A stretch of DNA of 48,979 nucleotides from a virus (IMGVR_UViG_2529293142_000029:1-48979), one strand, 5' to 3'. Positions 37,530 through 38,522 are shown, counted from the stretch's first letter. Notes: generated by a model not told the origin, from the sequence alone. Program-made: numbers and translations.

Positions 37530-37640
37530 ATGCCCTCCATAGTAACCATGAAACAATAATACGATATGTACTTTTAGAATGCAAACAAAAAATACATCTT
37601 GTGCATGGATGGTTTTAGTACAGAGCGTAATAATAAGGGT
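37530..37640. promoter_or_regulatory. Divergent promoter/operator region (OR-like) between cro-like and cI-like genes
   Basis: Contains AATACgatatGTACT (37558-37572), AATACatcttGTGCA (37591-37605) and AGTACagagcGTAAT (37617-37631), related to the AGTAC-N5-GTACT palindrome found at pL. Confidence 0.45.
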
Positions 37641-38298
37641 ATGAAAATGAAATGGTATGAACTGGCTAGATCCAGAATGAAAGAGCTCGGCATAACTCAA
37701 GAGAAGTTAGCCGAAGAGCTTGGTATGACGCAGGGTGGAATTGGTCACTGGTTGCGCGGATCTCGTCATCCATCTCTTGACGAGATTGGTGTGGTGTTTA
37801 AATACCTTGGTATTGATAACGTCTCATTCAACCACGACGGTACATTTTCACCTGTTGGCGAATACTCATCTGCCCCCGTTAAAAACAATATGAGTACCCT
37901 GTTTTTCTCATGTTCAGGCCGGGATGTTCTCGCCTGAGCTTAGAACCTTTACCAAAGGTGATGCGGAGAGATGGGTCAGCACAACCAAAAAAGCCAGTGA
38001 TTGTGCGTTCTGGCTTGAAGTTGAAGGTAATTCCATGACCGCGCCAACAGGATCCAAGCCAAGCTTTCCTGACGGGATGTTAATTCTCGTTGACCCTGAG
38101 CAGGCTGTTGAGCAAGGTGATTTCTGCATAGCCAGACTTGGTGGTGACGAGTTTACCTTCAAGAAACTGATCAGGGATAGCGGTCAGGTGTTCCTACAGC
38201 CACTAAACCCGCAATATCCAATGATTCCATGCAATGATAGCTGTTCCGTAGTAGGGAAAGTTATCGCCAGCCAGTGGCCTGAAGAGACATTTAGTTAA
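37641..38298 (+). CDS. CI-type repressor (non-lambda HTH N-domain plus lambda-cI-like S24/LexA-type C-domain); frame break at A5 (37881-37885) / T5 (37902-37906)
   Basis: N-part [27 protein letters not shown]-part from 37906 matches recalled lambda CI CTD ([32 protein letters not shown]...); the two are in different frames. Confidence 0.75.
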
Positions 38299-38423
38299 CA
38301 GCCTCACAACTCTAAAACACACAACAATAACCCGACCTTAGCGTCGGGTTTTCTTTTTCCAAAATATAAACCCATTAAATACAAAGCGTTATAAAAAACT
38401 AATTATATTTAGAACATTTTGTA

Positions 38424-38453
38424 TTGACTCAATAAAGTACAAATCGTACTATT
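38424..38453 (+). promoter_or_regulatory. pL-like promoter with overlapping operator palindrome
   Basis: -35 TTGACT (38424-38429), -10 TACTAT (38448-38453); palindrome AGTACaaatcGTACT at 38436-38450; downstream CATCAGCAGGACG matches the recalled lambda pL transcript start region. Confidence 0.5.
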
Positions 38454-38491
38454 TAGCCATCAGCAGGACGTACTAACCACCATGAAGGTGA

Positions 38492-38522
38492 CGCTCTTAA
38501 AAATTAAGCCCTGAAGAAGGGC
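38492..38522 (+). promoter_or_regulatory. nutL site (boxA CGCTCTTAA, boxB GCCCTGAAGAAGGGC)
   Basis: Read directly; matches recalled lambda nutL. Confidence 0.8.

Follow-up and report, generated by a model that had tools for sequence, protein, structure and literature searches.

A probable lysis/lysogeny switch of the cI2c/cro4 type of Stx1 and Stx2 phages within the lambda-like early region of a lambdoid prophage

Positions 37530 to 38522 of a viral DNA sequence of 48,979 nucleotides (IMGVR_UViG_2529293142_000029; the whole stretch is called the window here) raise the question of whether a lambdoid prophage carries a new immunity specificity. A first-pass annotation had read them as a hybrid immunity region, in which lambda-type N, nut sites, cII, and repressor C-terminal domain are combined with a non-lambda repressor DNA-binding domain and its own operators, and in which the recombination junction lies beside two frame breaks in the repressor gene. 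The comparisons reported here make it highly probable that an argW-integrated lambdoid prophage has its lysis/lysogeny switch in this region, that the immunity type is the cI2c/cro4 type of Stx1 and Stx2 phages placed in a lambda-like early region (cII, nutR, nutL, and N), and that the frameshifts in cI are most likely homopolymer under-calls. The window contains a nearly complete lambdoid prophage, extending from intS (1-1158) to a host MFS transporter gene (47732-48979), and intS adjoins tRNA-Arg/argW in a relative, Escherichia coli TW10590. Its map runs opposite to that of standard lambda: the minus strand encodes cII, cro, and the replication genes, and the plus strand encodes cI and N. 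Blast searches of the window halves against complete E. coli genomes returned mosaic matches only, covering at most 84% at 97% identity.

Comparison with lambda (blastn against NC_001416) divides the region into alternating lambda-like and unrelated blocks. The first lambda-like block (36905-37307, 96.8% nucleotide identity) covers cII, the oop terminator region, and nutR. The cII gene (36901..37194, minus strand) encodes a lambda-type protein of 97 amino acids (Pfam Phage_CII, E = 5e-48), and nutR (37274..37305, minus strand) consists of boxB GCCCTGAAAAAGGGC (37288..37274), an exact match, and a boxA-like element AGCTCTTAC (37305..37297) read from the sequence. The second block (37889-38292, plus strand, 93.3% nucleotide identity) encodes the lambda-type hinge and C-terminal domain of cI (S24 peptidase, oligomerisation) from about residue 101 to the end, with 97% amino acid identity over 136 residues and a match to the lambda repressor structure 3bdn in the PDB (E = 2e-96). 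A short block thereafter (38321-38356, 88.9%) corresponds to the terminator downstream of lambda rexB (lambda 35799-35834), and a terminator scan placed an intrinsic, timm-like terminator at the same site after cI (38329..38358, plus strand). The block from the pL transcript start through nutL (38458-38545, 97.7%) contains exact boxA CGCTCTTAA (38492-38500) and boxB GCCCTGAAGAAGGGC (38508-38522) motifs on the plus strand, which together (38492..38522) coincide with the annotated NutL feature of lambda. The last block (38607-38934, 93.6%) belongs to the N gene (38633..38959, plus strand), which encodes a lambda-type antiterminator of 108 amino acids (Pfam N36, E = 1.5e-26).

The region thus shares with the lambda immunity region its overall architecture and, at 89 to 98% nucleotide identity, cII, nutR, the cI hinge and C-terminal domain, timm, the pL transcript start, nutL, and N, as the first-pass annotation had stated for N, both nut sites, cII, and the repressor C-terminal domain (93 to 98% in the blocks concerned). 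Lambda homology is absent by blastn from two blocks, one holding cro, OR, and the cI N-terminal domain (37308-37888) and the other holding OL and pL (38357-38457). Unlike lambda, the region lacks rexA and rexB. The mosaic boundaries fall at the cI hinge (37888/37889), 7 bp beyond the stop codon of cro, and near the pL start, where lambda homology resumes 6 bp downstream of the promoter at 38458, presumably close to where the lambda pL transcript begins. The leader between nutL and N (38546-38606) is unlike that of lambda and shorter (about 60 bp versus about 110 bp), and the same variant occurs in phage Dewey and E. coli GPEC1405.

The two regulatory proteins encoded around OR are not those of lambda. 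The cI gene (37641..38298, plus strand) encodes a repressor of 219 amino acids once two missing bases are restored. Its N-terminal domain is 20.5% identical to that of lambda at the amino acid level, against 97% for the C-terminal domain, and the repaired translation retains the lambda Ala-Gly cleavage motif VQAG/MF together with the GNSMT and FKKLI motifs that contain the catalytic Ser and Lys. An intact homologue with the same N-terminal domain sequence as the window contains Pfam HTH_3 (E = 7.9e-11) and Peptidase_S24 (E = 1e-28), so that an HTH domain and an S24 peptidase with its Ala-Gly site and Ser/Lys dyad identify a repressor of the LexA/cI type; in the window as given, the reading frame is interrupted by two -1 frameshifts (37881-85 and 37902-06). 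The cro gene (37314..37529, minus strand) encodes a 71-amino-acid HTH_3 protein (E = 1.4e-12) that gave no BLASTP alignment with lambda Cro. The earlier view of the repressor HTH domain and Cro as foreign to lambda is therefore borne out, and with a 20.5% identical N-terminal domain, no Cro alignment, and no homology at 37308-37888 and 38357-38457, the region falls outside the lambda immunity type. No 434 or P22 c2 chains were recovered in a PDB sequence search (E ≤ 0.01), in which the HTH region gave only weak matches (E = 5e-4 or worse), all of them to other proteins; as structures of both repressors are solved, this sets the region apart from imm434 and P22 c2 immunity.

Cro and the cI N-terminal domain are 35% identical to each other, and both contain a TQGxIGHW recognition-helix motif that is also found in the Cro of phage L. 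On sequence comparison, the two are paralogous, and the common motif would fit both proteins reading the same half-site. RefSeq and GenBank relatives begin cI at an upstream ATG (37605), inside OR2, giving 231 amino acids. The MKM(K/N)W start at 37641 is conserved with the repressors of Salmonella phages g341c and L, and because the conserved protein begins there, the annotated start at 37605 is probably 12 codons too long. Around position 38117, in the C-terminal domain, a C-to-A change unique to the window replaces AVEPGD, as encoded by Dewey, GPEC1405, the Stx1 phage, and lambda, with AVEQGD; it could be a real substitution or a further sequencing error.

A megablast search of phage records shows that this regulatory segment recurs in known phages, many of them Stx converting. 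The segment from cro through OR to cI is 92.8% identical at the nucleotide level to that of the Stx1-converting phage AP005153, the Stx2 II phage AP005154, Nil2, 2851, and about 20 PA-series Stx phages. Relative to AP005153, the cI N-terminal domain is 96.4% identical in amino acids and cro is 98.1% identical in nucleotides to the putative cro annotated there. A tblastn search with the cI N-terminal domain alone recovered 63 phage records at 95% identity or more, with Stx2 phage 1717 and a large number of Stx2a phages among them. The whole 1441-bp query is 99.2% identical in phage Dewey (PQ850600), and vB_EcoP-683R2, 720R6, Louie, and phi458 match it at 97.6 to 99.4% identity over 96 to 98% of its length. 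At least 80% of the query is present in 201 of 5,426 complete E. coli genomes, and in the E. coli matches listed the genes are all annotated as an intact LexA family protein, an HTH regulator, and antitermination protein N.

This type already has a name. Smith et al. (2012) classed the repressor of VT2-Sa, Stx2 II, YYZ-2008, and 1717 as cI2c, which has the carboxy terminus in common with lambda CI and a unique amino terminus implying different DNA binding, and noted that cro4 accompanies it (PMC3430580). The near identity of the cI DNA-binding domain and of cro, with Stx2 II and 1717 among the matches, assigns the region to cI2c/cro4, as do operators at the same positions and of nearly the same sequences as in AP005153. 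The novelty implied by the first reading of the region does not hold, since the N-terminal domain (96 to 100% amino acid identity), cro (98% nucleotide identity), and the six operator positions all match the Stx-phage type; essentially the same immunity type is present in AP005153, Stx2 II, Nil2, 2851, 1717, and the PA series. It is already annotated and widespread, and is catalogued rather than well characterised: no published biochemical characterisation, footprint, or EMSA of a cI2c-type repressor, and no superinfection study of this type, was found in the literature. The Stx-phage repressor of BAA2326 (O104:H4) studied by Chakraborty et al. (2018) is a different repressor, 61% identical to that of lambda and with other operators, and is described as similar to lambda in its DNA-binding domain (PMC5977221). 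The Phi24B/933W immunity region (PMC3064807) is also of a different type.

Three groups of relatives frame the assignment. The Stx phages of the cI2c/cro4 type (AP005153, AP005154, 1717, VT2-Sa, Nil2, 2851, and the PA series) share with the window cro at 98% nucleotide identity, the N-terminal and C-terminal domains of cI at 96% amino acid identity each, three OR and three OL operators at homologous positions, and the same pR/pL geometry. In those phages, however, several open reading frames lie between cI and OL/pL, and pL drives an N of the HK97 type, whereas in the window cI is followed directly by the terminator and OL/pL, which drives a lambda-type N with lambda nutL; cII is of the lambda type in the window and of the HK022 type in AP005153. 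Dewey, vB_EcoP-683R2, 720R6, Louie, phi458, and about 200 E. coli prophages share the complete order cro-OR-cI-OL-pL-nutL-N at 97.6 to 99.7% nucleotide identity with an intact cI (A6 and T6), while their replication genes and the genes downstream of N are unlike those of the window, a difference that is ordinary mosaicism. Far more diverged are the Salmonella P22-like immC regions (g341c, epsilon34, L, and ST64T), in which the repressor N-terminal domain is related at 45 to 55% amino acid identity and the operator cores are similar (ATAC-N5-GTAT). The Cro of phage L is 65% identical to that of the window in nucleotides, sharing the TQGAIGH(W/Y) helix, and its c2 repressor joins a related N-terminal domain (45%) to a C-terminal domain of the P22 c2 type rather than the lambda type. 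Related sites are annotated as repressor binding in the g341c immunity region (ATACACATCGTAT and ATACAAATTGTAT), and a related site is also found in L (AATACATTTCGTACT).

A motif scan confirmed the perfect palindrome that had been proposed as an operator at pL, AGTACAAATCGTACT (38436-38450), the one site in the 49 kb of the window that fits AGTAC-N5-GTACT perfectly, as well as the three related copies between cro and cI (37558-72, 37591-605, and 37617-31). With up to two mismatches, AGTAC-N5-GTACT has 21 matches in the window against 10.7 expected, a count reached by none of 100 shuffles. The wider form ARTAC-N5-GTAYT occurs perfectly only twice in the 49 kb, at OR1 and OL1, where it overlaps the -10 element and the spacer of pR and pL. 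With at most one mismatch, 4 of its 11 matches sit in OR and OL, which make up roughly 210 bp, and 3.3 are expected across the whole window.

The four candidates noted at first are all present, but their number was too low, as two further sites lie upstream of pL (38377-93 and 38410-26); OL is tripartite, as is OR, with six related putative sites in all and not four. At OR, these are the putative sites OR1 TAATACGATATGTACTT (37557..37573; perfect ARTAC-N5-GTAYT) and OR2 AAATACATCTTGTGCAT (37590..37606), both homologous to putative operators of AP005153, and OR3 TAGTACAGAGCGTAATA (37616..37632), which equals an AP005153 operator but for one flanking base and overlaps the likely -10 element of PRM. 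At OL, they are OL3 AAATACAAAGCGTTATA (38377..38393), homologous to the annotated AP005153 OL operator AAATACAAAGCGTTGTA; OL2 TAGAACATTTTGTATTG (38410..38426), placed by the motif scan, the AP005153 alignment, and its half-sites; and OL1 AAGTACAAATCGTACTA (38435..38451), which contains the perfect palindrome core and is homologous to AP005153 OL1, all three likewise putative. AP005153 annotates three OR and three OL putative 17-bp operators, which correspond one to one with the six sites of the window and differ from them by 1 to 2 bases each, chiefly within the central spacer or the flank. The half-site reads wA(G/A)TAC(A/G), and its AC is unchanged in all 12 copies. Whether the sites are 15-bp palindromes rather than 17-mers, as was first suggested, is a matter of definition: the palindromes are present, but the conserved half-site extends to the 17-bp frame annotated in AP005153. 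Written out as wARTAC-N5-GTAYTw, the operators of the window include none of the annotated 17-mers of lambda.

In the OL region, which has diverged from the Stx1 phage, 47 of 51 operator columns are identical against 28 of 50 other columns, and this pattern is best read as a phylogenetic footprint of conserved operators. The assignment of the six sites rests on symmetry, position, conservation, and a database annotation that is itself labelled putative. Consensus scans placed the pR promoter at 37556..37585 on the minus strand (TTGCAT-17-TATTAT, equivalently TTTGCA-18-TATTAT), where its -10 element and spacer overlap OR1, and the pL promoter at 38424..38452 on the plus strand (TTGACT-17-TACTAT), which has the same geometry with OL1. 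The arrangement is that of a lambdoid switch: divergent cI and cro flank a tripartite OR, with pR overlapping OR1 and an inferred PRM, and a second operator cluster lies at pL, which drives N and is followed by nut sites. The centres of neighbouring operators lie 33 and 26 bp apart at OR and 25 and 33 bp apart at OL. Operators in lambda are spaced about 23 to 24 bp apart, so that lambda-like pairwise cooperativity has to be assumed here.

A working model follows by homology with lambda and draws on the sequence comparisons, domain assignments, motif counts, conserved sites, and consensus promoters given above. In this model, the HTH_3 N-terminal domain of the repressor would bind the six 17-bp operators, three between cro and cI and three at pL, and repressor dimers at OR1/OR2 and OL1/OL2 would block pR and pL, where OR1 and OL1 overlap the -10 element and spacer. 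Dimerisation, cooperative binding, and RecA-stimulated self-cleavage at the conserved Ala-Gly site would fall to the C-terminal domain, which is 97% identical to that of lambda. Cro may bind the same operators and thereby lock in lytic growth, and N would be expected to act at nutL and nutR, both identical to those of lambda. OR2 lies about 43 bp upstream of the ATG at 37641, a distance that, as we read the sequence, would be compatible with activation of a leaderless PRM transcript from OR2, as occurs in lambda.

It remains to account for the two frame breaks in cI. Alignment with Dewey, E. coli GPEC1405, and the Stx1 phage located the first at 37881..37885, where the window has A5 and all relatives have A6, and the second at 37902..37906, where it has T5 and all relatives and lambda have T6 (both on the plus strand). 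Restoring both bases yields a continuous protein of 219 amino acids from the ATG at 37641. The pattern extends across the window. Five references align with 29.3 kb of the window at 97.5% identity or more. In this span, 55 homopolymer runs have at least six bases, and 10 of them differ in length, 9 being one base short in the window; just 1 of 1,359 runs of three to five bases differs. Such deletions split the genes for an acyltransferase (2468), terL (24123), an HNH endonuclease (33382 and 33405), O (36010), and the IS66 tnpC (41013), and a further one lies between annotated genes (46951). The frame breaks in cI are very probably homopolymer under-calls in the assembly and not biology, as judged from these run lengths.

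The principal alternative is that both deletions are real, cI being genuinely a pseudogene and the prophage defective; the N-terminal open reading frame of cI (37641-37937) could still yield a non-cleavable DNA-binding fragment that partly represses pL and pR. Homopolymer slippage is the commonest natural indel as well, terL and O are broken too, as expected of a decaying element, and an IS66 element has genuinely entered the prophage on the downstream side of N and the adjacent Nmad5 gene, so that some decay of the prophage is real. This IS66 copy (39631-42135; tnpA, tnpB, and tnpC) is flanked by a perfect 8-bp target duplication, GAATAAAC. The same element also argues in the other direction, since it is identical over 2,510 bp to the copy on E. 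coli MINF_2E plasmid 3 save for one A in an A7 run, so that one of the deletions is the sole difference in a 2.5-kb match between IS copies. Each of the 9 isolated deletions removes a single base from a run of six or more, and essentially none occurs elsewhere. None of the E. coli matches listed carries the cI deletions, each spanning 1443 to 1444 bp for the 1441-bp query, and an exact search for the doubly deleted 44-mer found no copy in 185,579 species-representative genomes. Judging from lambda biology, loss of cI from a prophage that keeps pL, pR, N, and kil intact should moreover be toxic. We therefore regard a genuine pseudogene as unlikely, and the pseudogene calls in the window (cI, O, terL, the HNH endonuclease, IS66 tnpC, and the acyltransferase) as not trustworthy without read support.

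A more specific form of this alternative, in which genuine deletions leave the prophage silenced by the truncated, non-cleavable fragment (open reading frame 37641-37937) as an SOS-insensitive, "grounded" prophage, seems to us more doubtful again. Weaker still is the suggestion that the 33/26-bp and 25/33-bp spacings, combined with a cooperativity domain identical to that of lambda, reveal a different cooperative binding geometry. The cI2c/cro4 repressor as a type is a natural domain swap, pairing a lambda-identical cooperativity and cleavage domain with another DNA-binding head and other operator spacings. Although common among Stx phages, it has apparently had no biochemical study, and it would be convenient for probing lambda-type cooperativity against operator geometry.

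Lastly, the proximity of the mosaic junction to the frame breaks could suggest that lambda and an unknown phage recombined recently at the homopolymer runs of cI, giving a novel hybrid with a new immunity specificity. The proximity itself was described correctly in the first-pass annotation, as lambda homology starts at 37889, and the boundary at 37888/37889 lies between the two homopolymer runs and their breaks. A link between them was not upheld: the junction is common to all intact relatives, the T-run of lambda is T6, and the breaks fit the under-calls seen across the window, so their closeness is coincidental, whichever account of the breaks is right. The junction is present, with intact genes, in every member of a large clade that includes Stx phages. 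The C-terminal-domain DNAs of the window, lambda, and the Stx1 phage are 91 to 93% identical to one another, and no pair among them reflects recent exchange. In Salmonella phage g341c, the C1 repressor joins the same two kinds of domain, with amino acid identities of 55% (N-terminal) and 78% (C-terminal), which makes the pairing old, and the combination is already in the literature (PMC3430580). A recent recombinant is accordingly very improbable. On this distribution, the cI-hinge junction is an old mosaic boundary common to the whole clade, and the region appears "hybrid" only relative to lambda. A programmed frameshift in cI was rejected, because the relatives all encode one continuous open reading frame and two -1 events 21 bp apart leave the frame unrestored.

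As a whole, the region is a textbook case of lambdoid mosaicism, in which modules have been exchanged at the hinge of cI, at the 3' end of cro, and where pL starts, and it is of little discovery value. A few features of its surroundings are recorded here. An Rfam scan of 36000-40000 gave only one sub-threshold chance match, to AfaR (27.5 bits against a gathering score of 100). Directly downstream of N, positions 38971-39594 encode a 207-amino-acid protein with the Pfam domain Nmad5 (nucleotide modification associated domain 5; E = 2.7e-68), where Dewey and GPEC1405 carry other genes. At the position of lambda P, the window encodes a DnaB-type replicative helicase of 458 amino acids (34284-35660) and not a P-type loader, a common alternative among lambdoid replication modules. 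Inside the O gene (36040-36190, minus strand), direct repeats of about 12 bp with units of the CATGTGCGG type form four overlapping 50-nucleotide copies at 12-bp steps; these are probably the ori iterons of the replication module and encode a His/Ala-rich repeat in O.
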